Source: Blastocatellia bacterium
GTDB taxonomy: Bacteria; Acidobacteriota; Blastocatellia; UBA7656
Direction: 5' to 3'
Length of the DNA stretch: 64,000 nucleotides
Assembly (NCBI GenBank): GCA_049273855.1
Contig: JBASRN010000295.1
Coordinates: forward strand, 3,931-67,930
Shown: piece by piece, positions 2,488-37,760 of the stretch
How positions within the stretch are numbered: the stretch's first letter is position 1
Layout: the number at the start of each line of letters is the position of its first letter
Made by a program: the position numbers and the translations under genes
The notes under the pieces: generated by a model
Told to the model about the DNA's origin: nothing
Database searches by the model: none
Seen by the model: only the letters and a program-made list of their open reading frames with translations

Positions 2488-2601
2488 ACTGAGAATCAAA
2501 AAGACGAGGCGCGGAGCGAGGCTGCGAAGAACAATTCGCGGTGGGGAGCCCTGGTTCCGCCTACGGGTTAGCGACTCCGCGTAGAGGGGACGATGCGCGA
2601 T

Positions 2602-3741: not shown

Positions 3742-3760
3742 TGATGACTTCTTCGCCTTT

Positions 3761-4177
3761 TCATTTTTTCGTTGCCGCTAGATCCGCGACTGATTTCTTG
3801 ATCAATTCCTTCAGCGTGGGCAAATCCACGTCGTCAAGCTTCTTTATGTACAGGCAGGATTTTCCCGTCTTGTGCTTTCCCAGCTTCTTCATAAGCGCGG
3901 GATAACGTTCGAGTCCCCCCATGATGTACAAGGTCAGGTCTTGTTTTCGCGGCGAGAAGCCCGTCAGGAACCACTCCAACTCGCGCCCGCTTTCGTACTT
4001 GTACTGATAGCGGCCAAAGCCGACAATGCTCGTTCCCCACATTGCCGGCTCCGCTTTCGTCTCGGCGTTCATCATTTCCAAAAGGCGGAAGCAGTCCTTA
4101 CGACGCTGTTCATCGGCGATGTTGTTTAGGAACTTCTCGACGCTCGCGGCGTTCTTTCTGGTTTTCAGTTCCGCCAT
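3761..4177 (-). CDS. DUF1801 (YdhG-like) domain protein
   Basis: 138 aa with a WGTSIVGFG...YQYKY segment and a basic C-terminus typical of the YdhG/DUF1801 family. Confidence 0.5.
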   Translation of the reverse strand: MAELKTRKNAASVEKFLNNIADEQRRKDCFRLLEMMNAETKAEPAMWGTSIVGFGRYQYKYESGRELEWFLTGFSPRKQDLTLYIMGGLERYPALMKKLGKHKTGKSCLYIKKLDDVDLPTLKELIKKSVADLAATKK

Positions 4178-13641: not shown

Positions 13642-13901
13642 CGTGTGATTCTCGTTTGTAGGATCAAGTGTCAAGCAGCTTCGACGCCGGGTAGTGGGGT
13701 AATAATGTGTTGATGCCTGGCGCCGCCTCTCCCGCCACGAAGACACTAAGACACAAAGCCGCACAAAGAAAAGCTTTGTGGAGCTTCGTGTCGTTGGTGA
13801 CTTAGTGGCGAGACTCTTCTCAACACGCTATTGCACCACTACCCGACGCCGAGATCAAACTCCGCGCCTTTGCGCTTCTGCGGTGAACCGGCAAAGCAGT
13901 A

Positions 13902-14912
13902 CTATGTCGGCTGCGTACGAAACCGCGCTGCTTCGAGCCGTTCGTATACCGGAGAAAGCCAATGCTCCACCGCCTGAAGCACAGCGGCGGTTGCCGTAAC
14001 TCGTTTTGCTTTCAAGTCGCTCGTGAACTCAACCGAAGGGTTCTTGGCATCGAACTGGGCGACCCGCCGGAGAGTTTCCAGGTCGGAAGACGCGTGCTCG
14101 ACGCGAAAGAAATCGGGAATCTCCGTCCATGCAGCTTCGGGCAATTGCTCGTAGTTGATCATCATCCCGCCAAAGCTCCGTTGATGGGAAAGAGCCGCTT
14201 CGCACGCGCACGCAAGAACTCTAGCGCAGTACTGCTCGGGTTGCATATCGTAAGCCTCAGATACCGTCATCCCGAAGAGCTCAGGCTCGATCGCGCCTGG
14301 AACCATGTGAGCGCCTCGTCGCGCCAGTTGCGAGGCCAATACTTCGACGGGGTTCCGATACAGGAAGATCCACGGTACGTCCGGATAAGCTCGATGAATA
14401 AGCGGCAAGTCCAGCGCGCTCCAGCTATCGAATTTGATGAATAGCTGTTTTTCGTCGCCGCTTCTTCTCTGGGCGAGAGCGCTCACCATCCATCGTAGCC
14501 ACTCGGCACGCCGCTGGTCGCTTAGCAGTGGGTCTCTAAACTTCGCTCGAAGCACCGAATCGATCGGACCAGATTCGGAGAGCACCACGCTCCCGGCCAG
14601 CGCCGCCAGCAACTGCGACACCAGCGTCGAGCCGCAACGCGACATGTGAAAGATAAATCCTCGCGGGTGAAGACCCGGCTCGATCGCGTGATGCTCGGCA
14701 AGCGTGTCAAGCGAGGTTTGCGGCCGAAACATCGAGCTGAACGGAAGCTGCAGCGCTGCGTCGATGGTCTGGTTGAAGAATGGTTCAGCGTATGGCCGGG
14801 TGCCGACCCAGCACCAATCGATGAGCGGACGGCTGCCCTCCCAGTAGACGCGAATCGGTACCCAGCCGCGGAGTTGACTGGCCCTCACGCTCACACCCAC
14901 CTCTCGATCCAC
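13902..14912 (-). CDS. sulfotransferase family protein
   Basis: P-loop-like PAPS-binding segment FIFHMSRCGSTLVSQLL and the overall sulfotransferase layout. Its 5' end overlaps the upstream gene by about 22 nt, so the true start may be internal. Confidence 0.6.
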   Translation of the reverse strand: MDREVGVSVRASQLRGWVPIRVYWEGSRPLIDWCWVGTRPYAEPFFNQTIDAALQLPFSSMFRPQTSLDTLAEHHAIEPGLHPRGFIFHMSRCGSTLVSQLLAALAGSVVLSESGPIDSVLRAKFRDPLLSDQRRAEWLRWMVSALAQRRSGDEKQLFIKFDSWSALDLPLIHRAYPDVPWIFLYRNPVEVLASQLARRGAHMVPGAIEPELFGMTVSEAYDMQPEQYCARVLACACEAALSHQRSFGGMMINYEQLPEAAWTEIPDFFRVEHASSDLETLRRVAQFDAKNPSVEFTSDLKAKRVTATAAVLQAVEHWLSPVYERLEAARFRTQPT

Positions 14913-15703
14913 GCGCGGCGGTTTCTTCGATACGCCTGTTCGACGTCAAGCGCATTGAAGGGGCAGCCGCGCTCTTCGCCCAGGCGGACAACCAGGTCGA
15001 TAAAAAGACGCCTGTCCTTTACCTGTCTGAGCCTCTCCTGAAGACCTTCGTCATCGAAAACCAGGCGGCAAAATCTCTCCAGGCTTTCTGGAGATGGAAG
15101 TCCGGAGACTGCAGAAGATGAAACGACAGTCGTTTCGATAGACCGGCTCGCCGAGGCCACAAGCGAAAGAAGCCAGTCATCAACGGCGCAGTCAATGACC
15201 AGGTGCACGCGATCGGCGTTGCTGCGATTCTCGACTTTGTGGGGCAGGTTGGCGTTGATGTACCAGCACTCGCCCGCTAGCATAACGACTCGTTCGGCGT
15301 TGAGATAGAACTCGACAAGCGGGTCGGTGGTGATGGGTATGTGCAACCTGACCTCGCCGTCTTCGAGGCTCAGGTTGTAGTCGCGGTGCTCGATGACTCG
15401 CGCGGCGGGACCGAGCTTTAGAAGCCGCGCCGACTTCAGCGGGCACTGAAGCGCCGCAAGGACGCGCCGGAGCGAGGGACACCGCGCCAGCACCTGGGTG
15501 TCCCGAAATGGTTCGGTTGTCCCGGGGTCGGAGTAGAGCCGCTTCCCCGCACTCTCGACCGCACGAAGCGCCACACCGCTCCATTCGCCCTCGTAATAGC
15601 GGTCGTTGAAGTGCCGAACCCACTCGTCGGACGATATATTTTTCAGATCAGACTTCAGACCCTCGGGATCGAAGCTGAGTGGAAGTTTCAGACAGCTTTG
15701 CAT
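14891..15703 (-). CDS. aspartyl/asparaginyl beta-hydroxylase family (cupin, Fe/2-oxoglutarate) protein
   Basis: Y-x-G-x-W-x-V-x-L box (RYYEGEWSGVALR) and the HRD...LHIPI cupin region. C-terminal tail of about 80 aa of unknown function. Confidence 0.65.
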   Translation of the reverse strand: MQSCLKLPLSFDPEGLKSDLKNISSDEWVRHFNDRYYEGEWSGVALRAVESAGKRLYSDPGTTEPFRDTQVLARCPSLRRVLAALQCPLKSARLLKLGPAARVIEHRDYNLSLEDGEVRLHIPITTDPLVEFYLNAERVVMLAGECWYINANLPHKVENRSNADRVHLVIDCAVDDWLLSLVASASRSIETTVVSSSAVSGLPSPESLERFCRLVFDDEGLQERLRQVKDRRLFIDLVVRLGEERGCPFNALDVEQAYRRNRRAWIERWV

Positions 15704-15886
15704 TGCACGCTTGTGAGGACGCCGATGTAATGTTCAAGATTCAGAAGGTGAATGAAACCCTGCCTTCCTGCCACCAAGACACCGGAACACGAAGCACCGC
15801 GAAGCGTGGAAAGTCTTGCGTTCGTTGACTCGGTGCGGCTTCGTGGCTTTGACTCTTTGTGGCGCTACCCGTTTTTCAGCATACTG

Positions 15887-17284
15887 CTAGAACCCCACCT
15901 GACCTATGGACTTCTTATCAATCCTGGACGCGTACTTCTTCGCGACGGATTCGATCTCGCCGGCCTTTCCGATCAACACGAACACCAGATTCTCCAGGGG
16001 GAAATACTGTTTGATAACCCGCTGGGCGTCAGCCATCGTCATCGAGTCGATCTTCGTGGTGTAGCTGTTAACGTCGCTCGCATCCAATCCATAGAACTCG
16101 AGCTGAACAAGCAATTCGGCGAGCTGATCGCTGGTCTCGATGGTCGGCGGGAATTGTCCCTTCAAATAAGTCTTCGCCGACTTCAGATCCTCTTCGGTGA
16201 CTCCGTTCTCGTGAAGCCGCTTCAGGATCTCGAGCGTCATATCGATCGCCTTCTCGGTTGTCTCGTTGCGCGTGTAAGTCGAGATCACAAACGGTCCCGG
16301 AGTCTGATGCTGGATGAACGAGGACCGCGCGCCGTAGGTCAGCCCGGTCTTTATGCGAAGCTCGGTGTTGAGCATCGAGGTGAACCGTCCGCCGAACAGG
16401 GTGTTGATCACTTGAACGAAAACGCGATCGGGATTCGTGCGAGCGATGCCGAGATTACCGATCTGAAAAAACGTCTGAGTCGAGTCGGGTTTATCGACCA
16501 GCAACAGCTTCTTGCCCACAAACGCAGGTGCTTCGATACGCCTGACTCCCGTCTCTGCAGGTGCCTTCCAGCCGCCGAACCTCGAAGTCAGCGTTCGTTC
16601 CATCTCAGCAATGTCAAAGTCTCCGACGACCGCGATTGTCGTGTTCCCCGGCGTATAATGAGTTTGATAAAACTTCACGACGTCGTCGCGTGTGATTGCG
16701 GCGATAGACTTCTCGTCGCCGCTCGTCGGACGGCCGTACGGATGACTGCCGTAGAGGTACGCCCGGAAGTAGTTGCCGATAACTGCCTGAGCCTGATCTT
16801 TGGCGGCTTTGACTTCGTCGACCCGTTGCTTCAGCAGCTTGATGACTTCGTTTTGAGGAAAGGTGGGATTGAGCACGACGTCCGCCAGCAGATCGAGCCC
16901 CCTGGCGATGTCCTTTTTCACAAACTCGGCGGTTCCGTTTGAATAATCAAATGTCGCATCGGCGCCGAGTTCTCCGCCGACAAAGTCGAGCTCGTTCGAT
17001 ATCTGGTCGGCGCTGCGAGACTTTGTGCCTTTCCGAAGGAGCGCCGCGGTTGCCGACGCCGTGCCTTCTTTGCCCGCCGGGTCGCCGGCCGACCCGGCGC
17101 TTAAAATGAAGTGGAAGCTGATGATTGGGACTTCGTGCTGCTCCATCAGTAGGAGGGTGAGGCCGTTGTTGAGCCGAATCTTCTTGAACGGCGGCAGCTT
17201 CAACGCGCCGTTCTCGGCTCCGGCCGGCCCAATCGTCGAGAAAGTGAACAGCCCGATTAGCGCAAGTATGAACAATCGTTTCAT
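15887..17284 (-). CDS. M16 family peptidase, non-catalytic (HxxEH-less) subunit, secreted
   Basis: Insulinase-like fold without the HxxEH motif. Signal peptide MKRLFILALIGLF. Adjacent to a catalytic M16 partner. Confidence 0.75.
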   Translation of the reverse strand: MKRLFILALIGLFTFSTIGPAGAENGALKLPPFKKIRLNNGLTLLLMEQHEVPIISFHFILSAGSAGDPAGKEGTASATAALLRKGTKSRSADQISNELDFVGGELGADATFDYSNGTAEFVKKDIARGLDLLADVVLNPTFPQNEVIKLLKQRVDEVKAAKDQAQAVIGNYFRAYLYGSHPYGRPTSGDEKSIAAITRDDVVKFYQTHYTPGNTTIAVVGDFDIAEMERTLTSRFGGWKAPAETGVRRIEAPAFVGKKLLLVDKPDSTQTFFQIGNLGIARTNPDRVFVQVINTLFGGRFTSMLNTELRIKTGLTYGARSSFIQHQTPGPFVISTYTRNETTEKAIDMTLEILKRLHENGVTEEDLKSAKTYLKGQFPPTIETSDQLAELLVQLEFYGLDASDVNSYTTKIDSMTMADAQRVIKQYFPLENLVFVLIGKAGEIESVAKKYASRIDKKSIGQVGF

Positions 17285-23662: not shown

Positions 23663-25081
<1,419 letters not shown>

Positions 25082-25138
25082 CCAGGTCGTCGAGGCTGTA
25101 CCCAGCAATACGAAATGGAACTTCGGGAGGGCTTGAAG

Positions 25139-26581
25139 ATGAAAAGATGGTTATCAGTTTCCATCGCGCTGGCGGTTGGGATCGTGGCGGCAAGCATGGT
25201 CTTGTCGGCTTCGATCGACGCAAGCTCTGGCAGCAGGAAGGTGGTGACGTTCAATAAGGACGTCGCGCCGATCTTCTATAAGAACTGCGCGGAGTGTCAT
25301 CGGGCTAACGACATTGCTCCGATGCCGCTGATGACCTACAAAGACTCCCGCCCTTGGGCGCGTTCGATCAAAGAGAAGATCCTGACTCGCCAGATGCCGC
25401 CCTGGAGTCCCGATCCGAAGTACGGCGAGTTTATAAACGATCATCGCCTCGCCCAGAAAGACATCGAAACGATAGCCGCGTGGGTGGACCAGGGCGCAAA
25501 GGAAGGCGACGCGAAGGACCTGGCCCCGACGCCGGAGTTCACTTCGACGGACGGCTGGCGGCTTGGCAAACCCGACGCGGTCTTTGACATCGGCAAGGAG
25601 TTCACCGTCAAAGCGGGAATGCCCGACACGATCGAGAACTTCATCGTTCCGACCAACTTCAAAGAAGACAAGTGGGTGACGGCGGCCGAGATCCTTCCCG
25701 GCAACAGAAAAGTCGTGCATCACGTGATCGCGTTTATCCAGACGCCGGAGATGATCGAAAAGTTCAAGAAGGGCGAAGGCCGTGCACGCGCGTTGATGCA
25801 GAGCGATGTCTTTTATCGCGACGGCTCGCTGTTGAAGGTGAAAGCCGATGCGCCGGTGATCAATGACGGATGCGGCGCGCCAAACGGAGGCTCGGCTTTC
25901 AAGCGCCCCAGCGCGAGCGAGGGCGGTGACGCGTTCGGGTTGTTCCTGGCAGGGTATGCTCCGGGCAAAGGCATTGATGTTTTCCCGGCAGGCACGGCCA
26001 AGAAGGTTCCCGTGGGCTCGATGCTGGTGTTCCAGATGCACTACTCCAGCTACAGCGGCAAGTTCGAGGGCGTGCAGGGCGATCGCACGAGGCTCGGGTT
26101 GCACTTTGCGAGCAAGCCGCCGGAGCGTGGCTTGAACACCGTTGGCATTCAGAATCATTACTTCAAGCTACCGGCTGGTGAAGGCAATCAAGAAGTGACG
26201 GCTTGCTACACCTTCGACGCGACGGTTCACCTCACAAGCTACATGCCGCACATGCATCTGCGCGGCAAGGATATGAAGTACGAGGTGGTCTATCCCGACG
26301 GCCGGCGGGAGACGCTGTTGTGGGTGCCGAAGTTCAGCTTCAACTGGCAGACGATGTACTACTTGAAGAAACCGGTAACGCTTCCCAGGGGCACAAAGCT
26401 GATCGTCACAGCGCACTTCGATAACTCGGACAAGAACAAGTACAACCCCGACGCCACAAAGGCGATTCGGTGGGGCGATCCGACCTACGAAGAGATGATG
26501 ATCGGATGGATGGAGTACTACGTCGATGGTCCGGTAAAGAGTGAGAGACCTGACGCAGCCGCTTCGGGGTCGCGAAGGTAG
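25139..26581 (+). CDS. array paralog 2: cytochrome c + PHM-like monooxygenase fusion
   Basis: Start at MKRWLSV after a GGGAGGG RBS. NCAECHRAND. HHVIAF. VHLTSYMPHMHLRGK. EEMMIGW. Confidence 0.8.
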   Translation: MKRWLSVSIALAVGIVAASMVLSASIDASSGSRKVVTFNKDVAPIFYKNCAECHRANDIAPMPLMTYKDSRPWARSIKEKILTRQMPPWSPDPKYGEFINDHRLAQKDIETIAAWVDQGAKEGDAKDLAPTPEFTSTDGWRLGKPDAVFDIGKEFTVKAGMPDTIENFIVPTNFKEDKWVTAAEILPGNRKVVHHVIAFIQTPEMIEKFKKGEGRARALMQSDVFYRDGSLLKVKADAPVINDGCGAPNGGSAFKRPSASEGGDAFGLFLAGYAPGKGIDVFPAGTAKKVPVGSMLVFQMHYSSYSGKFEGVQGDRTRLGLHFASKPPERGLNTVGIQNHYFKLPAGEGNQEVTACYTFDATVHLTSYMPHMHLRGKDMKYEVVYPDGRRETLLWVPKFSFNWQTMYYLKKPVTLPRGTKLIVTAHFDNSDKNKYNPDATKAIRWGDPTYEEMMIGWMEYYVDGPVKSERPDAAASGSRR

Positions 26582-26656: not shown

Positions 26657-28105
26657 ATGAAGAAAGCAGTAGTGATCTCAGGGATAACGGCGGCGCTTGC
26701 GCTATTGTGTCTGGCTGTGTCGCCTCCGACCAGCGCGAGCGGCTCCGCCAGGAAGGAAGTCACGTTCACCAAAGACGTGGCCTCGATCCTGTTTAGCAAT
26801 TGCGCCGAGTGCCACAGGCCTAACGACATTGCGCCGATGTCGCTGCTGAGCTACAAGGAAGTGAGACCATGGGCTCGCTCGATCAAGGAGAAGGTCGCCA
26901 ATCGGGACATGCCGCCCTGGAGTCCTGATCCCGCGTACGGCGAGTTCACCAACGATCACCGGCTCGCCCAGAAATATATCGACACAGTAGTAGCATGGGT
27001 CGATCAGGGGGCGAAGGAAGGCAATCCGAAGGATCTTCCGAAGATGCCCGAGTTTGTCGGCGGTGGGTGGGCGATTGGCAAGCCTGACGTCGTGCTTCAA
27101 ATGGGGGAAGAGCACATCGTCAAACCGAACGACCCGGACCAATACATCAACTTCTTCATTCCGACAAACTTCAAAGAGGACATGTGGGTTCAGGCGGCCG
27201 AGGTTCATCCCGGCAACAGGCGCGTCGTGCATCACGTGATAGCGTTTATCCAGACTCCTCAGACCATGGCCAAGCGAGCCGAGGACGCAAAGGCCAAGGG
27301 AGAGAAAATCGGCAAGCGTGCCGCGGGCGGTTCGGGATTGTTTTATCTAGATGGCAACTTGAGACGGGTGAAGATGGATGCGCCTGTGGTGGACAACGCT
27401 TGCGAGCAAAGGGCACCGGGCGGACGGCAGCCTGGCGGGGGCGGCGAAGGCGAGAACGAAGGCATGTTGCTTGCGGGTTTCGCGCCCGGAACGGGGAACA
27501 CCGTCTATCCATCCGGCACCGCGAAGAGGGTTCCGGCGGGTGCGACTCTGATGTTCCAGATGCACTACTCGGCTTTCAGGGGTTCGCTCAAAGATTCGGT
27601 GACCGACCGAACCAGCATTGGGCTGATCTTCGCGAAGCAAGCTCCGGAAAAGATGGTTATCACAAGCGCCGCGGCTAACCTTCTATTCAAGATCCCGGCC
27701 GGCGCCGACAATCATGAAGTCCTGGCCTGTCAGACCGTCCCGCGCGACATCCAGGTGATCAACTACATGCCTCATATGCATCTACGCGGGAAGGACATGA
27801 AGTACGAAGCGATCTATCCCGATGGCAAGCGCGAGACGCTGTTGTGGGTGCCCAAGTTCAGCTTCAACTGGCAGTCGGTCTACTGGTTGAAGCGGCCGGT
27901 GAATATTCCAAAGGGCACGAAGTTGATCGTGACAGCTCACTTCGACAACTCGGCGAAGAACAAGTACAACCCGGATTCCAGTAAAGATGTTCGATGGGGC
28001 GATCCGACTTACGATGAGATGATGATCGGCTGGATGGACATCACCATCGACAACCCGATGAAGGCTCCGAAGCCTGACGCAGCGCGGGCGGCCTCGGGCA
28101 AGTAG
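26657..28105 (+). CDS. array paralog 3: cytochrome c + PHM-like monooxygenase fusion
   Basis: NCAECHRPND. HHVIAF. MPHMHLRGK. DEMMIGW. Confidence 0.8.
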   Translation: MKKAVVISGITAALALLCLAVSPPTSASGSARKEVTFTKDVASILFSNCAECHRPNDIAPMSLLSYKEVRPWARSIKEKVANRDMPPWSPDPAYGEFTNDHRLAQKYIDTVVAWVDQGAKEGNPKDLPKMPEFVGGGWAIGKPDVVLQMGEEHIVKPNDPDQYINFFIPTNFKEDMWVQAAEVHPGNRRVVHHVIAFIQTPQTMAKRAEDAKAKGEKIGKRAAGGSGLFYLDGNLRRVKMDAPVVDNACEQRAPGGRQPGGGGEGENEGMLLAGFAPGTGNTVYPSGTAKRVPAGATLMFQMHYSAFRGSLKDSVTDRTSIGLIFAKQAPEKMVITSAAANLLFKIPAGADNHEVLACQTVPRDIQVINYMPHMHLRGKDMKYEAIYPDGKRETLLWVPKFSFNWQSVYWLKRPVNIPKGTKLIVTAHFDNSAKNKYNPDSSKDVRWGDPTYDEMMIGWMDITIDNPMKAPKPDAARAASGK

Positions 28106-28116
28106 TCTACTTGTAC

Positions 28117-28195
28117 GGGCGTCCCTCTGTGGGCGCCCCTCCTTACAAACACGAGATATCGTCGTTGCGAGTAGGGGCGCTCTTACAGGACGCCC
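28117..28195. repeat. pair of GC-rich palindromic units (GGGCGn(10-11)CGCCC + CTACAA) in mutually inverted orientation
   Basis: GGGCGTCC 28117-28124 pairs with GGACGCCC 28188-28195. GGGCGCCCC 28131-28139 pairs with GGGGCGC 28174-28180. Each unit also folds on itself. Confidence 0.5.
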
Positions 28196-28399
28196 CCTAC
28201 AAGCCGAAGCAAGAGCCAGGTGTAAATAGTCGGCTCTATTTCCGTCGCCCCTGAGAGCGCAAATACGACCTTTGAGACCACACACATATAAGGAGGTAGA
28301 CCCCTGAACACAGCGCCCACCAAGCAAAGCGAGTACGATGCAATAGCAAAGACAGTCCAGCACTATATCGATGGCGGCAGGTCTGGCCGAGGCGCAGAC

Positions 28400-28678
28400 A
28401 TGAAGCCGGCCTTCCACCAGGATGCGACGATCTTCGGCTATAGTGGAGCCGATCTGTTCGCTGGCCCCATCCAGCAGCTCTTTGACTGGAATGATCAGAA
28501 CGGTCCGGCGACGGGACTCCAAGCCCGGATTGCCAGCATCGACATCATCGAAACGATTGCCACGGTGCGGCTGGAACTGGACGACTGGACCGGACATCGG
28601 TTTACCGATCTGTTCACGCTGCTCAAGGTCGACGGGGAATGGAAGATCATGAACAAGGTCTTCCATCAGCACGCTTGA
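28400..28678 (+). CDS. NTF2-like (SnoaL/lumazine-binding-like) small protein, probably with a non-ATG start upstream near 28304
   Basis: The conserved-looking N-terminal segment (AIAKTVQHYIDGGRSGRGADM...) lies in-frame upstream of the first ATG. An AGGAGG RBS at 28291-28296 is followed by CTG at 28304. Confidence 0.5.
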   Translation: MKPAFHQDATIFGYSGADLFAGPIQQLFDWNDQNGPATGLQARIASIDIIETIATVRLELDDWTGHRFTDLFTLLKVDGEWKIMNKVFHQHA

Positions 28679-28720
28679 GAGAACAACAGGCCACGCGGTG
28701 GACAACGTGACGCAGCCTGA

Positions 28721-28761
28721 GCGCCGGCCGCGAACTTTCTTCGCGGCCGGCGCGTTGTGTT
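28721..28761 (+). terminator. perfect 14-bp stem / 5-nt loop hairpin followed by GTTGTGTT (intrinsic-terminator-like)
   Basis: GCGCCGGCCGCGAA-CTTTC-TTCGCGGCCGGCGC directly after the NTF2-like gene stop and upstream of paralog 4. Confidence 0.55.
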
Positions 28762-28814
28762 AGAATGCAAGCCGGCGGCGAACGCCGCCTCAAACCACCC
28801 CGAGGTTTTAGAGT

Positions 28815-30464
28815 ATGAAGAAAGCAGTTTCACTCCTCTTAGCCGCCGTCCCGCTCGCAATCATCTGCTTCGTAGCCTCAACCGCCGCTCAGGCTAGCGA
28901 CGCGAAGAAGAGCGCAAGGCCAGTCACGTTCAGCAAGGACGTCGCGCCGATTCTCTTCAAGAACTGCGCCGATTGCCATCGTCCGGGTGAGCTCGCGCCC
29001 ATGTCGCTGCTGAGCTTCAAGGATGCGCGGCCGTGGGCGCGCTCGATTCGCGAGAAGGTCGTCAGCCGGGTGATGCCGCCGTGGCACGCCGATGAGCACT
29101 ACGGAAAGTTCGGCAACGACAAGCGGCTTTCGCAGCAGGAGATCGACACGATAGCCGCGTGGGTCGATCAAGGCGCCAAAGAAGGCAATCCGAAGGAATT
29201 GCCGCCCGTGCCCGTTTACCTAAATGGCTGGAAGATCGGCAAGCCCGACGTTGTGTTGACGATGCAAGAGGAGTACACGCTTGCGGCTGCAGGCTCTGAC
29301 GAGTACATCAACTTCACAATACCCACCAGCTTCAAAGAAGACGTCTGGGTGCAGGCTGCCGAGGTCCATCCGGGCAACAAGCGCGTCGTGCATCACGTGA
29401 TTGCGTTCATCCAGACCCCACAGATGCTCGCCTCGTACAAGGCCTCTGGCGGAAAACCCTCCGCTCAATCGATCTTCTACCAGGATGGAACGCTGATTCG
29501 CACAAAACTCGAAGCGCCGGCTCACGATGACGGCTGCAAAGCGCCGAACGGCGGACTCTCTCGCGGGAGCGGTCAGGAGGGCCTTGGCTTTCCGCTCTGT
29601 TTCTACACCCCTGGCAAGGACGTGGACGTTTGGCCCACCGGCGTGGCCAAGTCGGTCCCCGCCGGCTCGAACATAGTTATTCAGGTTCACTACTCGAAGA
29701 CCACCGGCAAGACCGAAAAGGACCGCACGAGCGTAGGGCTTATCTTCGCCAAAGAGCCGCCAGCCAAAGTGCTGTCGGCGTTTGGCGTGATCAATCACTA
29801 CTTTAAGATTCCACCAGGCGCGGAAAATCACGAGGTCAAGGGCTGCTACACCTTCTCGCGCGACGTCGAGATTCACGGGTTCCTCCCGCATATGCATTTG
29901 CGCGGCAAGGATATGAAGTACGACGTGGTCTATCCCGACGGGCGGCAGGAAACGCTGCTTTCCGTCCCCAACTACAACTTCAACTGGCAGACGTTGTACA
30001 AGGCGGATAAGCCGATCGAGCTTCCGAAGGGCTCGAAGATAATTGTCACCGCGCACTTCGACAACTCGGAAAGGAACAAGTACAACCCGGACCCGACGAA
30101 GACCGTGCGATTCGGCGACCCGACTTATGACGAGATGATGGTCGGGTACTTCGACTATGTCACCAAGGTGCCGAAACGGAACGCGATCAAGCTCGACGCG
30201 AAGACGCTCGACAGCTACGTTGGAGACTACACCGTCGTTGGCGCCGGTGTGCCCTTCAAGATCACGCGAACCGGCGAGCAGTTGATGTTTACAACCCCCG
30301 GCCAGCCGATGGTAGAGGCGTTTCCGGAATCCGAGACGAAGTTCTACTTCAAGATTTTCGACGGGCAGGTGACATTTAAGAAGAACGAGGCGGGAAACGT
30401 GACCGCACTGGTCTTTGAGGTTAACGGCCGCTCGATTCTGGCAACGAAGAAGACGGCGAACTAA
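28815..30464 (+). CDS. array paralog 4: cytochrome c + PHM-like monooxygenase fusion with an extra C-terminal domain of about 100 aa
   Basis: NCADCHRPGE. HHVIAF. HGFLPHMHLRGK. DEMMVGY. C-terminal extension (KTLDSYVGDYTVVGAG...FEVNGRSILATKK) resembling the DUF3471-type beta domain. Confidence 0.8.
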   Translation: MKKAVSLLLAAVPLAIICFVASTAAQASDAKKSARPVTFSKDVAPILFKNCADCHRPGELAPMSLLSFKDARPWARSIREKVVSRVMPPWHADEHYGKFGNDKRLSQQEIDTIAAWVDQGAKEGNPKELPPVPVYLNGWKIGKPDVVLTMQEEYTLAAAGSDEYINFTIPTSFKEDVWVQAAEVHPGNKRVVHHVIAFIQTPQMLASYKASGGKPSAQSIFYQDGTLIRTKLEAPAHDDGCKAPNGGLSRGSGQEGLGFPLCFYTPGKDVDVWPTGVAKSVPAGSNIVIQVHYSKTTGKTEKDRTSVGLIFAKEPPAKVLSAFGVINHYFKIPPGAENHEVKGCYTFSRDVEIHGFLPHMHLRGKDMKYDVVYPDGRQETLLSVPNYNFNWQTLYKADKPIELPKGSKIIVTAHFDNSERNKYNPDPTKTVRFGDPTYDEMMVGYFDYVTKVPKRNAIKLDAKTLDSYVGDYTVVGAGVPFKITRTGEQLMFTTPGQPMVEAFPESETKFYFKIFDGQVTFKKNEAGNVTALVFEVNGRSILATKKTAN

Positions 30465-30522: not shown

Positions 30523-31755
<1,233 letters not shown>

Positions 31756-31799
31756 CAGCGGTCTGATTCTCTTCGGTTAGAACCTCGTTTAGGATTGAA

Positions 31800-31832
31800 G
31801 GGCCGATTCAACCTGTCCGGTTGAATCGGCCC
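31800..31832. other. perfect 14-bp stem / 5-nt loop hairpin immediately 5' of paralog 6
   Basis: GGGCCGATTCAACC-TGTCC-GGTTGAATCGGCCC. No U-tract follows. It ends 1 nt before the ATG at 31834. Confidence 0.5.
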
Positions 31833-31833
31833 G

Positions 31834-33180
31834 ATGAGTATGAAGAGGAAGAGCGACACGGCGACGGGGCGACGGAGCGACGCGGCGATCGGACGATCGC
31901 CCTCTGCGTCTCTGCGTTTGGGCGTCTCGGCGTTGATTCTGACCACCTTGTTCTTTGTTGACTCGTGGTTCGGTCGGGCTTTCGCGCACGAGCCGATCAC
32001 CACGAAAGTCAGATTCAACAAAGAAGTGGTGCGCGTCTTGCAGCGGAACTGTTTGGGTTGTCATCACACTGGTGGCTTGGCGATGTCGCTTGCGGCCTAC
32101 GACGAGGCTCGGCCGTGGGCAAAGGCAATCAAGGAAGAGCTGCTTGAGAAGCGTATGCCGCCGTGGCACGCGGTGCGGGGCTACGGCGAGTTTCGCAACG
32201 CTCCTACGATCACGCAACGCGAGATCGATTTGATCGTGAACTGGGTCGAAGGCGGCGCCCCAAAGGGCGACGACAAGGACTTACCGGATGGTCCGCTCTA
32301 TTCCGGTGAGGGGCAGTTAGGCGCCCCTGACCTGATCCTAAAGCCTCAGTCAGAGGCTCAAGTAGCAGCGGACGCCGACGAGCATCGCGGCTTATCGCTG
32401 GCGACTGATCTGAAAGAAGACCGCTGGCTAACGGCGATTGACCTTCGCCCGGGCAACGGCTCGGTAGTTCATTGTGCCACGTTCAATATTGAAGCCGCCG
32501 CAGTGGGCGATCCCGCGATGCCCGCGCGAATGAGTTCCGGCGTCGAGCGTTCGATGTCTCCTCCCGGGGCCGCACGAACACCAGCCTCCAACGCCATCGT
32601 TGCCACGTGGGCGCCGGGACAGCGAACAGTGGCGTTGCCTGACGGCATCGCGCAGCTTCTACCCGCAGGCTCGCGCATCGGTGTTACGATTCATTATCGC
32701 GGCGCCGGCGAAGCGGTGCAAGACCTGAGCGAAGTCAGTTTGTATTTCGCCGAGACCGCGCCTCGCAAACAGATTAGGCAGATCGCCATCACGGACCCCG
32801 ACGCGATCATTCCCGCAGCCACGGAACTTCAGCGCTTCAAGAAATCAGTCACGATTCAGGATGACGCAGAAGGAATCGCGATTCGTCCGCGAGTGCATCC
32901 GGTTGTGGCTTCGGTTCAGGCTACGGCGTTCCGGCCGGATGGCACGCAAGAGATTTTGATATGGACGCGCGGCTACCAGTTTGACTGGCAGCAGACTTAC
33001 TACTTCAAGCAGCCAATCGCGCTGCCAAAGGGAACGCGTGTTGAAGTGATAGCCTACTTCGACAACTCCGACAACAACCCAAAGAACCCGAACGACCCGG
33101 CCAAGCCGATGCGCTGGTCCGATCTAACGCAGGAACCGCTCTTTGCTCTTCTCGTAACAAGAACGCGTAACGCCGACTAG
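31834..33180 (+). CDS. array paralog 6 (most divergent): cytochrome c + PHM-like monooxygenase fusion
   Basis: NCLGCHHTGG heme motif. MPPWHAVRGYGEF. Conserved C-terminal YFDNSDNNPKNP block and FDWQ motif. Cu-site residues less conserved than in paralogs 1-5. Confidence 0.65.
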   Translation: MSMKRKSDTATGRRSDAAIGRSPSASLRLGVSALILTTLFFVDSWFGRAFAHEPITTKVRFNKEVVRVLQRNCLGCHHTGGLAMSLAAYDEARPWAKAIKEELLEKRMPPWHAVRGYGEFRNAPTITQREIDLIVNWVEGGAPKGDDKDLPDGPLYSGEGQLGAPDLILKPQSEAQVAADADEHRGLSLATDLKEDRWLTAIDLRPGNGSVVHCATFNIEAAAVGDPAMPARMSSGVERSMSPPGAARTPASNAIVATWAPGQRTVALPDGIAQLLPAGSRIGVTIHYRGAGEAVQDLSEVSLYFAETAPRKQIRQIAITDPDAIIPAATELQRFKKSVTIQDDAEGIAIRPRVHPVVASVQATAFRPDGTQEILIWTRGYQFDWQQTYYFKQPIALPKGTRVEVIAYFDNSDNNPKNPNDPAKPMRWSDLTQEPLFALLVTRTRNAD

Positions 33181-33387
33181 TCAGGCGGTAGACGCAAGCT
33201 TCGGTTACCACCACCACGCAGACCGGACGCGACCAATCGCCTTGATTGGTGGATTGATTCCAAAAACAAGCTGTGCAATACTCGGGCAACCGAGCCTCGG
33301 GTTGGTGAGTACCAAGGTAGCTCAGGCACGAAGAAGGCGAGCCGTTCAGTCCCGTCAGCACAAGATCTCTTACAGGAGGCTGAGTGT

Positions 33388-34518
33388 ATGTATGACTGCT
33401 TTATTTCTTATTCCAGTAAAGATGGGCTAGATCTTGCGAAATCGGTTGCCGCGATTCTCGAGAAAACATATTTGATGGACGTCTTTCTCGCCGAAGAGAA
33501 TCAGGGTACTGCCGGCATAGATTCGAAGGTAAAGGAGGCAATAACACAGTCCGGGAGATTTTTGGTTTTGTACACTCCCGGCGCTGTAACATCAGAATGG
33601 GTCAAGGGAGAGACGGCCATAGCATTGGATATGCAAAAGAACATGATTGTGTGCAGAAGCCGTGACGTGTCGAGGGAGAGTCTGCCTGTTCGGCTTGTCG
33701 AAAAAGAGCATATTGTATTCACCATCGAGAGTGAACTGCTACGGCTCCTTGCAGAATTAGGAGAGCGAGAATGGGGCATCCCTCTGATTATCCCGGCTGG
33801 CGGCACGGCGGGGGGATTGTATCCGTTGAACATAGGTATGCCGAAGATCCTTCTACCCGTTGAGAAGAAACCGCTCCTGCACCACATCGTCGATAAGTTG
33901 GACGCTACTGTGTTTTCAAAGGCCATAATCCTGACCAATCATTTCTTTGAGATGATCGAATATCACGTCAGCTCGCTCAAGACTAACGTTCCGTTGAAGT
34001 GCATAAGGACATCGGCCCCGACGCTTCCGTCGGCTCTAAAAGAGATATCGCCGGCCACTACTTTCATGGTTCACTACTCGGACATCATCATCGACGGGGA
34101 TTTTGACTGGCGTGATTTCCTAGCCCACCACAAGCACCACAGAAATCTACACGGCGTCATTGGCACTTTAATGGCGAGCGACAAGTATAAGCTGCCCGTT
34201 GGCCGAATAAAGACCGGACCGCAACAGTTGATTACAGATTTCGCGGAGAAACCACAACGTATCGAGGCCGTTGGCTATGCTATTAATATGGCCGTGTCGA
34301 TTTTTGAGCCAGAGTTTCTCGTTGGAGTGGAGGAGACGGATAGAAGCCTCTACGGAGATACCCTCAAGAGGGCGATGGAACAAAATAAGAAGTTTTGCAT
34401 CTACAGTCACGACCGGTGGCGTCACATTCAGACCCTGGGTGATTGGTATGAAGTCCAGTCGGATTATTTCAGAACCGAAGAAGGCCTCTACGCCTTGGTT
34501 CCGAGTTCACGGGATTGA
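33388..34518 (+). CDS. TIR domain - sugar-nucleotidyltransferase (NTP_transferase/RmlA-GlmU-like) fusion protein
   Basis: N-terminus CFISYSSKD plus SEWVKGE box, typical of TIR. Middle: PAGGTAGGLYPLNIGMPKILLPVEKKPLLHHIV matches the G-rich pyrophosphorylase signature. AGGAGG RBS. GC about 48-50% against about 62% flanks. Confidence 0.75.
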   Translation: MYDCFISYSSKDGLDLAKSVAAILEKTYLMDVFLAEENQGTAGIDSKVKEAITQSGRFLVLYTPGAVTSEWVKGETAIALDMQKNMIVCRSRDVSRESLPVRLVEKEHIVFTIESELLRLLAELGEREWGIPLIIPAGGTAGGLYPLNIGMPKILLPVEKKPLLHHIVDKLDATVFSKAIILTNHFFEMIEYHVSSLKTNVPLKCIRTSAPTLPSALKEISPATTFMVHYSDIIIDGDFDWRDFLAHHKHHRNLHGVIGTLMASDKYKLPVGRIKTGPQQLITDFAEKPQRIEAVGYAINMAVSIFEPEFLVGVEETDRSLYGDTLKRAMEQNKKFCIYSHDRWRHIQTLGDWYEVQSDYFRTEEGLYALVPSSRD

Positions 34519-34540
34519 GGCCGGCGGCTCCAAAGCGCGC

Positions 34541-34678
34541 GTCTCGAACGACGCGGCGAAACAAGTGCGCTGGTCCGAACTTGCCCGCGATCCCATATTC
34601 ACGTGCTTACTGCGAGCATCCGCGCGCTTGGTGAGCGGACGAGCCGACGCTGATACAGAATTCTCTTTGGGAGTTTGA
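34541..34678 (+). pseudogene. 3' remnant of a seventh cytochrome-c/PHM-like paralog (C-terminal 40-45 codons only)
   Basis: Translation ...NDAAKQVRWSELARDPIFTCLLRASARL... aligns with the paralog 6 C-terminus NDPAKPMRWSDLTQEPLFALLVTRTRN. DNA identity about 70%. No upstream body is present. Confidence 0.45.
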
Positions 34679-34701
34679 GGGGCGGCGACTAACCGCCCCT
34701 C
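34677..34701. terminator. 9-bp perfect hairpin between convergent gene ends (putative bidirectional terminator)
   Basis: GAGGGGCGG-CGACTAA-CCGCCCCTC lying between the stops at 34678 (+) and 34707 (-). No clear U-tract. Confidence 0.4.
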
Positions 34702-34706
34702 AACTG

Positions 34707-35420
34707 CTACTTCGTGACGTCTTTGGACGTGATGTCGATCGTGATCATAAAACCGTTCGTGCCTTTGTACTCGAACTTCTTTTCGCCGACCCGATAGGCC
34801 TCGACATCGTTGGGCATCATCACGAAGCCGCTGTTTCTTGGAACCCCAAAGTATTTGAGGTTGTGAATCACGATTGGATCGTTAGTCATTCCGGGAAAGC
34901 GGTTGAGCACGACTTCCGCAGTTTTACCGTCATCGATCCGAGCTTCAGCGCGATCCTTGCCGGCCTTCCAGTCTATCTTTCCGTCTTTGGCTACGGCGAA
35001 CGATTTCCATTTCACCGGATAGACGTGACCCAGAATCGTGGCGATTCCCTCGCGCTGTGCTTTTGTCACCGAAGAATCGAAGGTCAGGACAGCCCAGTCC
35101 ATTTGAGCCATCGAGAAGTCACCGCCGAGATCGCCGGAAACCCAGAACTTGGCGCCGTCGAGCTTCACCGAGCCGTAGTTCCCACTGTTAACCTGAAACG
35201 CGTTGTTGAACTTGCAGAAGTGCTCGCCGCCCGCGCCGTGTCCCGCGTGGGACGCCGGTTTGGTGTTGAAGTAGCACTGGCAGAACATCGGACAACTGCA
35301 CGCCTCGATGATGGTCGCCTTCATCGCCCAGTCGGGGGCGGCAGATTTGGCCTGAGCGGCGGCCGATCCAACGTTGCCTAAAAGGAACAAGAGAAATGTA
35401 AGGAAAACGAGTTTTCGCAT
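34707..35420 (-). CDS. DUF1326 family secreted protein
   Basis: Signal peptide and the CSCPMFCQC motif characteristic of DUF1326. Confidence 0.65.
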   Translation of the reverse strand: MRKLVFLTFLLFLLGNVGSAAAQAKSAAPDWAMKATIIEACSCPMFCQCYFNTKPASHAGHGAGGEHFCKFNNAFQVNSGNYGSVKLDGAKFWVSGDLGGDFSMAQMDWAVLTFDSSVTKAQREGIATILGHVYPVKWKSFAVAKDGKIDWKAGKDRAEARIDDGKTAEVVLNRFPGMTNDPIVIHNLKYFGVPRNSGFVMMPNDVEAYRVGEKKFEYKGTNGFMITIDITSKDVTK

Positions 35421-35697
35421 GCGAATACCTCCTTCAAAGGTGCGAGTTCTGTGCGACCGCCGCGCTCGGGGTCCGCATTAGTAAGTCGGACGGCTAAGCG
35501 CCGCGGTCGCGTATTCGATTTTGAACAAGATCTGGAGCGCCGTCGGCAAAGTGAGGTGTTCGACCAGCGGAAGCTCCGGCTAGCGAGGCTTGCGGATTCC
35601 AATAGGGCCAAATCTACGATACCTCGCCCTGAACCACAGCAATCTTGTCCCTGGCGCCTCGCTTTGTCAAACGACTCCGGCGCCAATAATCTACCGC

Positions 35698-36117
35698 TCA
35701 TTGAGCCGACGATAGGGTTTGCGGCTCTAGCTGAACGAGCTGCTGCTTCGGTGCGAGGTGATCTGCCGCTTCGAGCTGCCACAAACAATCGGCGACTCCG
35801 AAGGGGCCGTTCATTCTCCCGTCGTAATCCCGGCACATCTGCGGGCGCGTCTCGTACACACTGCAGACATAGTTTATCGCGCCGGCGTCTGTCTTGATCT
35901 CTTGAAGCGCGTTGCAACGCTGCGGAATCGAGAAGTAGTACTCGGAGCGCCCGCGCTTCTGAACGTAATCAATCTTGAACCCGTGAAGCTCCATCCAATG
36001 AATCTCATCGCGCGCGTCGTCATCGACCTCGCCTCCGAAGAACGTCATCGACATGCAGCACTTGCCGCAGATCAGACAGAGCTCGGATTTTCGCTTGGCG
36101 GACAATCGCTTTTTCAT
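35698..36117 (-). CDS. YkgJ/UPF0153 family Fe-S/zinc-chelating domain protein (CxxCxxCC)
   Basis: CLICGKCC motif and additional Cys residues. Start placed at the internal MKKRLS (36117). Confidence 0.55.
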   Translation of the reverse strand: MKKRLSAKRKSELCLICGKCCMSMTFFGGEVDDDARDEIHWMELHGFKIDYVQKRGRSEYYFSIPQRCNALQEIKTDAGAINYVCSVYETRPQMCRDYDGRMNGPFGVADCLWQLEAADHLAPKQQLVQLEPQTLSSAQ

Positions 36118-36404
36118 TTCGTTTTCCTCTTTGAAGGAGTTATCAAGACGGGGCGAGTATACCCGATTCGACTCAGCGCATAAACTTGCGTCGAATGGCG
36201 AGCGCGAGCAGCGCGGCTTGCACGGGTCCGAGGATGGTTTCAAGAAGGACCAACGTTTGCGCCGTGCCGGTTAGCGGCTTCGGCTCGGGCTTCTGCAAGC
36301 TCATCACCGCAAGGCTGTATGTCCAGACGCGTTGGATTGACAATGGCTGGCCGATGGTATCAGGCTCCGCTGCGGGCGCAAGATTAGCAGTTGGCGTTTC
36401 CGGT

Positions 36405-37118
36405 TTACTCTCGGGTTTTGTGAAACCGACTTGCGTGTAGAGCGAGGCGAAGACAATCCACACAGCCAAACCCCACAAGAAGGCGAGCCAAATGCGCTCT
36501 CCGTAGCCGCTCGCCGCCCAGTACAGCAGATGCAGCCAGTCTTGTCTTCCAGAGCGTCCAGCCCTTCCACTTGTTAAGACGCGCGAGATCCATAGCCCAG
36601 TATCGGAAATTCGATGCTTCCTCGTAGCGGTTATTTGTTTCGGCGTTTTCCGCGAGCTGGCGGCAGGCTATGGCGAGAAGACGGTTCAGTTGAAGCTTGC
36701 GCTCAGGGCTGTTCGGGGAGGAAGCCTCGTTTGCTTCCAGCGCTGCGATCTCTTGTTTGATGCTGATGCGGTCCTACTCCCACCGGACATCGGTGAAGAC
36801 GAACTGGCGAGAGTCCACGTTTACGAACCAGTGAGGGCGCAGGATGAGTGTATGGAAGGCTATTCGATCAGGGTGCTCGATCCTGACGTGCTGAAAGTCG
36901 AGCGATGGATCATTGCCAAGGGACATCGCTGCCAGGTTGGCGCCGTCGTTCAATTGCCTCTCGGTTGCGCTTCCGAAAAACCGAACAGAGTCGTTAAGAG
37001 AGGCGCTACGGAAATCTGCCCCAGCATGAAAAACTGAGAGGTCGAAACCCGCAGCCGCGCTGAACGTGGCATGGATGAAGTCCGCACCTGCGCTGAACGT
37101 GGCCCCGCTGAAATCCAC
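36405..37118 (-). pseudogene. pentapeptide-repeat protein gene interrupted by an in-frame TAG (36774-36776)
   Basis: The N-terminal 114 codons show 5-residue periodicity (DFSGA TFSAG ADFIH ATFSA...). The same frame continues protein-like for about 120 more codons after a single TAG. Confidence 0.4.
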
Positions 37119-37164: not shown

Positions 37165-37494
37165 GTGGCGACACGGATCACCGAGAGCGATGTGCTCGTA
37201 AGGATCAAGCGCGCGGTCCTCGCTGGTCGCTATGCATTCAGTGAAAAGGCGCGTTTGGAGATGGAAGCTGACCGTATCACGGAGCTTGATGTCGCGGAGG
37301 CGATTCTTAACGCAGTGGCGATCTTCAAGAAAATCCGGTCAACTAATCCACTGCGCAAGCGGCCCCGAGAATACCTTTACATCATACAGAGCACAAACCT
37401 TGAAGGCTTGCTCATCTATACAAAAGGCAAGCTCGTCAAGGAAGGAGGACATGATAGCTACTACTTTCTGGTATCATCCAAAAGAGCGATATGA
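37165..37494 (+). CDS. DUF4258 domain protein (putative toxin of a TA-like pair)
   Basis: 109 aa matching the DUF4258 size range. Overlaps the next gene by ATGA. Confidence 0.55.
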   Translation: MATRITESDVLVRIKRAVLAGRYAFSEKARLEMEADRITELDVAEAILNAVAIFKKIRSTNPLRKRPREYLYIIQSTNLEGLLIYTKGKLVKEGGHDSYYFLVSSKRAI

Positions 37495-37760
37495 CGATGA
37501 CCAAACTCAACATCAAAACCTGTCCGTCTTGTGACGGAAAGAGAATTAAGAGAGTTTGCGGGAATTGGACCGGTACCTTCAAGGGGGAAACATACACTGT
37601 TCCTAACTTGGAGTACTACGAGTGTCCAGACTGCGGAGAAAGAATCTACGACCGAGAAGCTATGAGAGAGATTGAGTCGCATTCACCCGCATTCGAGCGC
37701 CCGAAGCGGAAACGCAAGCCTGCTCGATCTACGCGATCCGCGACATCCCTCCGGCCTTAA
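37491..37760 (+). CDS. YgiT/MqsA-type zinc-ribbon protein (putative antitoxin partner)
   Basis: CPSCDG...CPDCGE double CxxC zinc ribbon. 89 aa. Translationally coupled to the DUF4258 gene. Confidence 0.55.
   Translation: MTMTKLNIKTCPSCDGKRIKRVCGNWTGTFKGETYTVPNLEYYECPDCGERIYDREAMREIESHSPAFERPKRKRKPARSTRSATSLRP

Follow-up and report, generated by a model that had tools for sequence, protein, structure and literature searches.

Positions 34545-34674 of the window, the 64,000-nt stretch of Blastocatellia DNA analyzed here, hold a decayed 3' gene end of the paralog-6 type, just downstream of a gene coding for a TIR domain fused to a nucleotidyltransferase domain. We consider it likely that this fragment is the original 3' end of p6, the last gene of a six-member array, pushed downstream by a TIR cassette that carried a replacement tail, and not what is left of a lost seventh gene. 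If this is correct, the array has lost no member and counting such relics would overestimate past copy number, and the locus would provide a base-resolved case of one gene entering the 3' end of a second gene and leaving it intact.

The array locus and the empty site in relatives

The window array is formed by six co-oriented paralogs (p1 to p6). We scanned p1, p4, and p6 with Pfam, and all three match the cytochrome c model; among these three, a copper monooxygenase-like C-terminal region was matched only in p1 and p4, and no toxin or immunity domains were found. The GC content of the TIR gene is 0.49 vs 0.60 for p6. Beyond the CxxC gene, on the minus strand, lies a gene that, from a reading of its sequence, we take to be a pyruvate phosphate dikinase and that serves here only as a conserved marker. 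The features of the locus are as follows.

23663-25081, plus strand: p1, cytochrome c model and Cu2_monoox_C-like region (Pfam)
25115-26581, plus strand: p2
26657-28105, plus strand: p3
28815-30464, plus strand: p4, cytochrome c model and Cu2_monoox_C-like region (Pfam)
30523-31755, plus strand: p5
31834-33180, plus strand: p6, last array member, with a cytochrome c CxxCH motif near the N terminus (ORF, Pfam)
33089-33125, plus strand: core copy A (p6 codons 419-431, PNDPAKPMRWSDL), the proposed left junction of the insertion
33126-33190, plus strand: p6 tail now in use (short type, ..TQEPLFALLVTRTRNAD*) and about 10 nt past the stop
33191-33387, plus strand: TIR gene leader, with TTGATT at 33254-33259, a 17-nt spacer, and TGCAATACT at 33274-33282
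33388-34518, plus strand: TIR_2 and NTP_transferase fusion gene, 376 aa (Pfam, PADLOC, and NCBIfam matches)
34519-34544, plus strand: 26-nt spacer from the TIR stop codon to the fragment, right end of the window-only DNA
34545-34581, plus strand: core copy B, the proposed start of the displaced native p6 3' end
34582-34674, plus strand: proposed displaced native p6 tail (long type, decayed) and remaining 3' UTR
34675-34703, no strand: GC-rich hairpin between convergent transcription units (11/11 inverted repeat)
34707-35420, minus strand: DUF1326 gene (Pfam PF07040), the presumed native right-hand neighbor of p6
35698-36243, minus strand: CxxCxxCC-domain gene (CxxC)

A scan for p6 in 185,579 species genomes yielded 80 loci. 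All six paralogs have one-to-one orthologs in other Blastocatellia, with 72 to 94% identity overall (72 to 91% for each window paralog in L037, L072, and L002 to L004), vs 30 to 57% among the paralogs themselves, and p6 is always the last array member in the relatives compared. Judging from these comparisons, the array is ancient and syntenic, and the sequence-only reading was right to place the insertion after the expansion of the array. It had also proposed that the array once had at least seven members, and here the relatives speak against it: none of the 64 related loci with at least 1.5 kb of downstream sequence has a seventh member directly after p6, be it intact and free of a TIR gene or otherwise. 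One locus (L012) does contain a distant (35%) relative of the array genes, but it is located beyond CxxC.

The closest relative found is represented by two contigs from two samples, L103 and L104, which were reached by a homolog search with DUF1326 followed by context look-ups (L103 to L106 are short metagenome contigs). Its gene order is p5, p6, UTR, hairpin, DUF1326, and CxxC, the last two on the minus strand, with no TIR gene and no seventh member. Amino acid identities between the window and L103 are 93.6% for p5, 81.9% for p6, 94.5% for DUF1326, and 88.8% for CxxC, and third-position identities at identical residues are 0.83, 0.75, 0.85, and 0.83, respectively. As the two flanks are equally diverged from L103, both appear to be native and the middle alone foreign. 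L037 ("Ca. Onstottus arcticum") is less close, with a third-position identity of about 0.65 and a p6 ortholog sharing 75.8% of amino acids with that of the window.

In blastn, the window aligns with L103 in two blocks, the first pairing 30865-33125 with L103rc 1-2266 and the second pairing 34545-36175 with L103rc 2230-3902 at 85.3% identity; the latter contains the p6 3' end, the 3' UTR, the hairpin, DUF1326, and CxxC. Colinearity with L103 ends at 33125 and resumes exactly at 34545, so the fragment does sit at an insertion breakpoint, as had been suggested from the sequence alone, and more precisely at the right-hand junction of the TIR insert. In L037, p6 is followed by a 78-nt UTR, the same hairpin, and a DUF1326 gene in the same position and orientation (93.7% amino acid identity), and L105 shares the p6-DUF1326 configuration. 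The fragment and its flank are colinear with the end of p6 in L103, L104, and L037, a further point against a seventh member. On the other side of the insert, the synteny block with L037 stops at 33187, and the DNA past the working p6 of the window matches the L037 UTR over only 10 nt (z = 0.7 to 0.9).

The hairpin at 34675-34703 folds at -26.8 kcal/mol (z = -4.8). It is conserved in L037, L103, and L105, lies directly 3' of p6 in the relatives, and in the window now comes after the TIR gene, just past the fragment. A T-run is missing; the hairpin could be a terminator, although a scan for consensus promoters and terminators flagged neither the hairpin nor the leader motif described below. A search with Rfam over 32800-35000 gave no credible match.

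The fragment, the duplicated core, and the two p6 tails

Read in frame 2 from 34520, the DNA past the TIR stop codon translates to AGGSKARVSNDAAKQVRWSELARDPIFTCLLRASARLVSGRADADTEFSLGV*, and this peptide is indeed colinear with the C terminus of p6, as previously described from the sequence. A Smith-Waterman alignment with p6 has a score of 68 (z = 9.3) that was equaled in 0 of 2000 shuffles, and weaker colinear matches involve the same C-terminal region in p5, p3, and p2. With a profile HMM made from 36 p6-ortholog C termini, the window excluded, the fragment scores 22.2 bits, compared with 4.7 for the best of 1000 shuffles, none of which reached the observed value. A six-frame scan of the whole window with this HMM returned the fragment as the sole match besides the six paralogs, and the motif that it carries (RWS[DE]L..P.C.LL) is of the p6 type and not of the p1-p5 type. 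An artifact of a single assembly is unlikely, as the structure recurs in a contig from an independent assembly (L001), with 100% identity over 3132 nt. No gene body precedes the fragment, in agreement with the sequence-only reading: we found nothing paralog-like between 33181 and 34545 with tblastn and DNA alignments against the six paralogs and the p5/p6 spacer.

The DNA identity of about 70% to p6 originally given for the whole fragment holds only for its first third (71% over the first 51 nt), beyond which it falls to about 0.5. The peptides still look alike in the second half (FTCLLRASARL in the fragment, FALLVTRTRN in p6), but this does not amount to homology of the same order, since the tails are of different types. 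The true counterpart is found in L103, whose LARDPICT is matched by LARDPIFT in the fragment. Relative to L103, the fragment has a 1-nt deletion and a frameshift after ARDPIFT, and its UTR has a deletion of about 12 nt; positions 34630-34666 also align with the stop codon and UTR of L037 (25/36, z = 6.2). The fragment has no start codon and is unique to the window lineage. Its 52-aa peptide had no homolog in a collection of 5.8 billion proteins, the related loci contained no homolog of it except complete p6 genes, and the C-terminus HMM found no orphan p6-tail relic in any of the other loci. Nor was there a genome with the fragment and no TIR gene.

The window has two copies of a 37-nt core (L103rc 2230-2266), A at 33089-33125 and B at 34545-34581. 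Between them lie 1419 nt of window-only DNA (33126-34544) with the TIR gene, of which the last 26 nt (34519-34544) have no counterpart in L103 or L037. Copies A and B agree at 30 of 37 positions (81%), with a longest exact run of 12 nt (GCGCTGGTCCGA), and they match L103 at 31/37 and 30/37, respectively. The core closes the most strongly conserved DNA of p6, where identity to L037 is 0.94 over codons 382-421. Copy A has AAGCC in common with L103, and copy B has AAACAA in common with L037, a hybrid pattern that would be expected for a reciprocal crossover, seen at only 2 to 4 sites. We also considered that the duplicated unit was the whole p6 3' UTR up to the hairpin (GATTGG.GATTGA), and rejected it, as the global alignment gives z = 0.9 and L099 places the motif in the TIR leader.

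Past the core, the window contains two different p6 tails. Counted from the core to the conserved GCGCTGAT, the fragment tail is identical to L103 at 49 of 67 positions (0.73, with gaps at two fragment positions), compared with 0.51 to L037 and about 0.5 to the window's own p6 tail, while the working p6 tail has 0.69 identity to L037 and 0.49 to L103. The p6 of L103 ends in ..RWDDLARDPICTLVTASVRVPGERARRR*, a long type with 17 residues past the Cys, and the fragment, which reads ..RWSELARDPIFTCLL.., is also of the long type. The working p6 ends in ..LTQEPLFALLVTRTRNAD*, a short type found as well in L037, L068, and L105 and in the TIR-bearing loci L013 and L082. The informative sites change sides accordingly along p6: up to codon 426 the window sides with L103 over L037 at 165 sites to 72, and from codon 429 on it sides with L037 over L103 at 20 to 2. 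From this distribution, we can consider the p6 body native up to about codon 426 and its last 17 to 18 codons of the short type. The short tail presumably arrived with the TIR cassette, and the window would then hold both tail alleles, the native one as a relic and the foreign one in service. The mosaic sites and the tail identities do not fit the proposal that the TIR gene replaced the body of a last paralog; they point instead to an insertion into p6 with a substitute tail. A change-point test for a foreign p6 tail with L037 and L068 only was not significant (p = 0.07 to 0.22), and it was the comparison with L103 that resolved the tail ancestry.

Proposed displacement of the p6 tail and competing explanations

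We propose that the ancestor was similar to L103 and L104, with p5, a long-tailed p6, its 3' UTR, and the hairpin, followed by DUF1326 and CxxC on the opposite strand. The incoming segment, of about 1.42 to 1.46 kb, would have consisted of a short-type p6 tail, the leader, the TIR gene, and the 26 nt, and would derive from a related Blastocatellia lineage with a TIR-nucleotidyltransferase gene directly after p6. It would have recombined into p6 at the 37-nt stretch conserved among lineages (codons 419-431). In this way p6 would have stayed intact, now ending in the imported tail, and the native tail would have been moved 1456 nt downstream, cut off from gene body, start codon, and promoter, to decay there by about 27% substitutions, the frameshift, and the UTR deletion. 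The duplication of the core could be the product of a single crossover in which the intermediate was circular or "ends-in"; alternatively, it could come from homology-facilitated illegitimate recombination, if the illegitimate join fell a short way upstream of the crossover.

The presence of the short tail, leader, and TIR gene together in L013 and L082 indicates that this unit exists as such in other lineages. A donor genome was not found; the closest TIR homolog is only 73% identical, and its contig (L099) starts just at the leader. It counts against import that the tails nearest to the imported one are those of L037 and L068, both without a TIR gene today. The identity between the fragment and the L103 tail is also below the third-position benchmark of about 0.81; the insertion may be older than the split between the window and L103 and have been lost afterward from L103, or constraint on the long tail may be weak. 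L103 could be either a never-occupied site or a precise revertant. A bolder version, which we think unlikely, is that the TIR gene, the leader, and the spare short tail form a small integrase-free cassette that repeatedly targets the p6 core, entering by a single crossover of a 1.46-kb circle and exiting by recombination between the cores, with L103 as a possible revertant. If true, such a cassette would keep the host gene intact by means of its own replacement tail, like integrative elements at tRNA genes.

The idea that a seventh, p6-like member followed p6 and that the TIR gene replaced all but its last 30 codons or so appears very unlikely to us, even though the fragment is of the p6 type, lies 1456 nt past the equivalent p6 point, roughly the length of one gene, and, as a distal tandem copy would retain the ancestral flank, has a colinearity compatible with this origin. 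Such a member is absent next to p6 in 64 of 64 loci, L103, L104, and L037 with their DUF1326 neighbor included, and the window preserves no remnant of its 5' end, its body, or an inter-paralog spacer. The fragment matches the single p6 tail of L103 and lacks the derived sites of the window p6 tail; this argues against a lineage-specific duplicate of p6, which would be expected to resemble it. Two precise junctions would also be needed, and the p6-leader-TIR adjacency in three other lineages would be left as a coincidence. A duplication in situ, in which about 100 nt from the end of the window p6 itself were copied and the downstream copy decayed, would account for the imperfect direct repeats that flank the insert, but we find it highly improbable, since outside the core the copies are only about 0.5 identical, compared with a neutral expectation of about 0.81 (L103) or about 0.65 (L037), and since they represent two tail types, each with counterparts in other genomes.

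The direction of the event could also be reversed, although we regard this as quite unlikely. The arrangement p6(short)-leader-TIR-CxxC would then be the original one, and an L103-like piece with the p6 tail, UTR, hairpin, DUF1326, and part of CxxC would have been inserted after the TIR gene through homologous recombination in CxxC and an illegitimate left join. That is the standard topology of homology-facilitated illegitimate recombination, with no duplication step, and it would agree with the TIR gene being followed directly by CxxC in L099, L082, and L013 and with the signs of exchange in the DUF1326 block, where L103 and L037 share 0.95 of nucleotides, compared with 0.85 in p5. However, the DUF1326 configuration is present in L103, L037, and L105 and is by parsimony ancestral, with two transfers required instead of one; the right flank, predicted to be younger, is no younger than the left relative to L103; and the fragment would start exactly at the conserved core by chance.

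Finally, chance similarity is excluded by the shuffle tests and the profile HMM, and a functional small ORF or RNA in place of a relic is hardly more attractive, so that we assign to these two options together an extremely low probability. An ORF (34271-34678) does span the fragment, but it overlaps the TIR gene in another frame, and neither an Rfam match nor a peptide homolog was obtained. Under the displacement that we favor, the fragment most likely does nothing more than form part of the 3' untranslated region of the TIR transcript, as it is placed between the TIR stop codon and the old p6 hairpin. In annotations, it is best labeled a p6 3' pseudogene fragment, with ORF 34271-34678 left uncalled.

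The TIR gene and the p6-CxxC junction

(i) TIR gene and leader. The TIR domain matches TIR_2 (2e-10), ThsB_TIR (1e-4), and, weakly, the PADLOC ThsB models (5e-6), and there is another weak match, to the Thoeris type III ThcB4 (4e-4), that is far below its cutoff. The TIR-nucleotidyltransferase family comprises 25 proteins, including that of the window, mostly from Acidobacteriota and one from Planctomycetota; a metagenome scan for further relatives returned distant nucleotidyltransferases only. Homologs at 55 to 57% identity are found in unrelated loci, and one of these homologs has a ThsB/ThsA pair as its neighbor. As in Thoeris ThsB, the N-terminal TIR domain of the window protein matches the TIR_2 and ThsB models, but no ThsA (SIR2 or TM with a SLOG/STALD domain) is found near its gene, and it has a C-terminal sugar-nucleotidyltransferase-like domain that is absent from described ThsB in the libraries searched. 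A ThsA-like neighbor is seen only in L087 and L088, and the neighbors of the window's TIR gene are p6 and DUF1326; PADLOC gave no matches in its flanks. We can regard the TIR-nucleotidyltransferase as a possible defense gene. In L087 (6001-9169) and L088 (1165-4333), the homolog adjoins a ThsB_TIR gene and a SIR2_2-STALD (ThsA-like) gene.

Closer homologs (60 to 73%) occur at this same locus, in the order p6-leader-TIR-CxxC in L013 and L082-84 and as leader-TIR-CxxC in L099, where the p6 end falls beyond the contig; in L101, the TIR gene is convergent with a p6-like gene. The closest homolog (73 to 84% identical) is interrupted by a frameshift and was called as two ORFs in each of two independent contigs, L099 and L100, and in L099 (1104-1310) its 3' end overlaps that of CxxC. 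Just beyond CxxC, L013 codes for a 1087-aa protein (13022-16285, plus strand) with SIR2_2, NB-ARC, and TPR domains, an architecture that resembles that of STAND-type defense proteins.

The leader of the TIR gene measures 207 nt and contains a motif, TTGATT followed after 17 to 18 nt by TGCAATACT, that is conserved in four lineages, with TGCAATACT located 97 to 113 nt before the ATG in the window, L099, L082, and L013. The leaders align with z = 17.7 between the window (33246-33320) and L099 and z = 10 between L013 and L082. Between the window and L013, the similarity alone is not significant, and it becomes clear once L082 and L099 are added. The motif may represent a -35 element and an extended -10 element, i.e., it is promoter-like, and the leader has no similarity to the 5' region of p6. 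It seems doubtful that the TIR gene is under the transcriptional control of the array, as the sequence-only reading had assumed.

(ii) Comparison with known systems. Jackson et al. (2009, PMC2935791) described C-terminal displacement for rhs genes, and Kirchberger et al. (2017, PMC5361080) explained the orphan 3' fragments of T6SS effector-immunity clusters through homology-facilitated illegitimate recombination. As in these systems, the incoming DNA would share a conserved stretch with the resident gene and bring a new 3' end and cargo, and the resident 3' end survives downstream with no start codon, with the conserved stretch at both junctions. The p6 tail has an ancestry unlike that of the body, the old end is contiguous with the ancestral flank, and a homology anchor is shared, all of them hallmarks of C-terminal displacement. 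On the other hand, p6 is a cytochrome c/copper-monooxygenase-like array member and not a polymorphic toxin like those of rhs, CDI, or T6SS; the displaced piece has only about 30 codons, with no immunity gene, and is a single relic and not a string of orphans; and the cargo is a TIR-nucleotidyltransferase gene. By analogy, the locus may work like rhs and T6SS displacement but outside the toxin families. The fragment is otherwise an ordinary insertion scar.

Some integrative elements target the 3' end of a gene and restore that gene with an end of their own, leaving attL and attR as direct repeats. The locus is similar in that the target p6 is intact thanks to a 3' end that the insert would have carried, the presumed original end is at the far junction, and direct repeats are present. 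Unlike those elements, the 1.4-kb insert has no integrase or other recombinase, and the only ORF in 33126-34544 besides overlapping out-of-frame ORFs is the TIR-NTP_transferase gene. As the repeats are 81% identical and belong to a conserved coding stretch, homologous recombination would be a simpler explanation than an integrative element.

(iii) Variable gene content between p6 and CxxC. Slots with variable accessory or defense genes occur between conserved core genes, and the p6-CxxC junction of Blastocatellia, empty or variously occupied, is similar to them. It differs from defense slots in that no mobile-element genes were seen there and its occupants are mostly not defense genes. The gap is empty (23 to 43 bp) in L012, L015, L018, L021, and L033. 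It contains a HAD hydrolase in L007, L008, L010, L014, and L025 (the last also with PIN), YdjM in L030, DUF5122 in L005 and L036, DUF1326 in L037, L103, L105, and the window, a TIR-nucleotidyltransferase in L013 and L082, and up to 6.6 kb of other genes in L019 and L020. Judging from this comparison of gene contents, the junction is a variable accessory-gene slot, in which genes would be swapped by recombination in the conserved flanks.

In DUF1326, L103 and L037 (1541-2254 and 11477-12190, respectively) form the closest pair (0.95 nt, third positions 0.88), the window being more distant from both, while in p5 the closest pair is the window and L103 (0.92 vs 0.85). The boundary of the high-identity tract between L103 and L037 lies near GCGCTGAT, in the p6 3' UTR, a pattern that suggests a homologous exchange of the DUF1326 block between lineages. 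An import of DUF1326, considered from its elevated similarity to L037, was rejected, as this family is highly conserved across phyla and the flanks are equally diverged from L103.

(iv) Other differences in the region. At 709 bp, the spacer between p3 and p4 (28106-28814) is longer in the window than in L037 (223 bp) or L072 (139 bp). It contains an ORF (28400-28678, plus strand) coding for a 92-aa Lumazine_bd_2 (SnoaL-like) protein that matches profile positions 25-116 of 116, from which it appears to be N-terminally truncated, and that has no counterpart across the related loci; it may be the relic of a second insertion inside the array. To the right of CxxC, a 375-aa gene of L037 (12973-14100), with pentapeptide repeats and a hydrophobic C-terminal part, corresponds to at least two window ORFs (36173-36478 and 36774-37118, minus strand), and the identity between the window and L037 falls to 0.48 at 36325-36474, so this pentapeptide-repeat gene looks disrupted in the window (36173-37118, minus strand). 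Next to it, at 37165-37760 on the plus strand, there is a pair of small overlapping ORFs with a low GC content (0.49). The first of them has no family match and no L037 counterpart, and the second (37491-37760) has a weak match to the MqsA antitoxin zinc finger (8.7e-6, below the cutoff), so the pair may be a toxin-antitoxin insertion.
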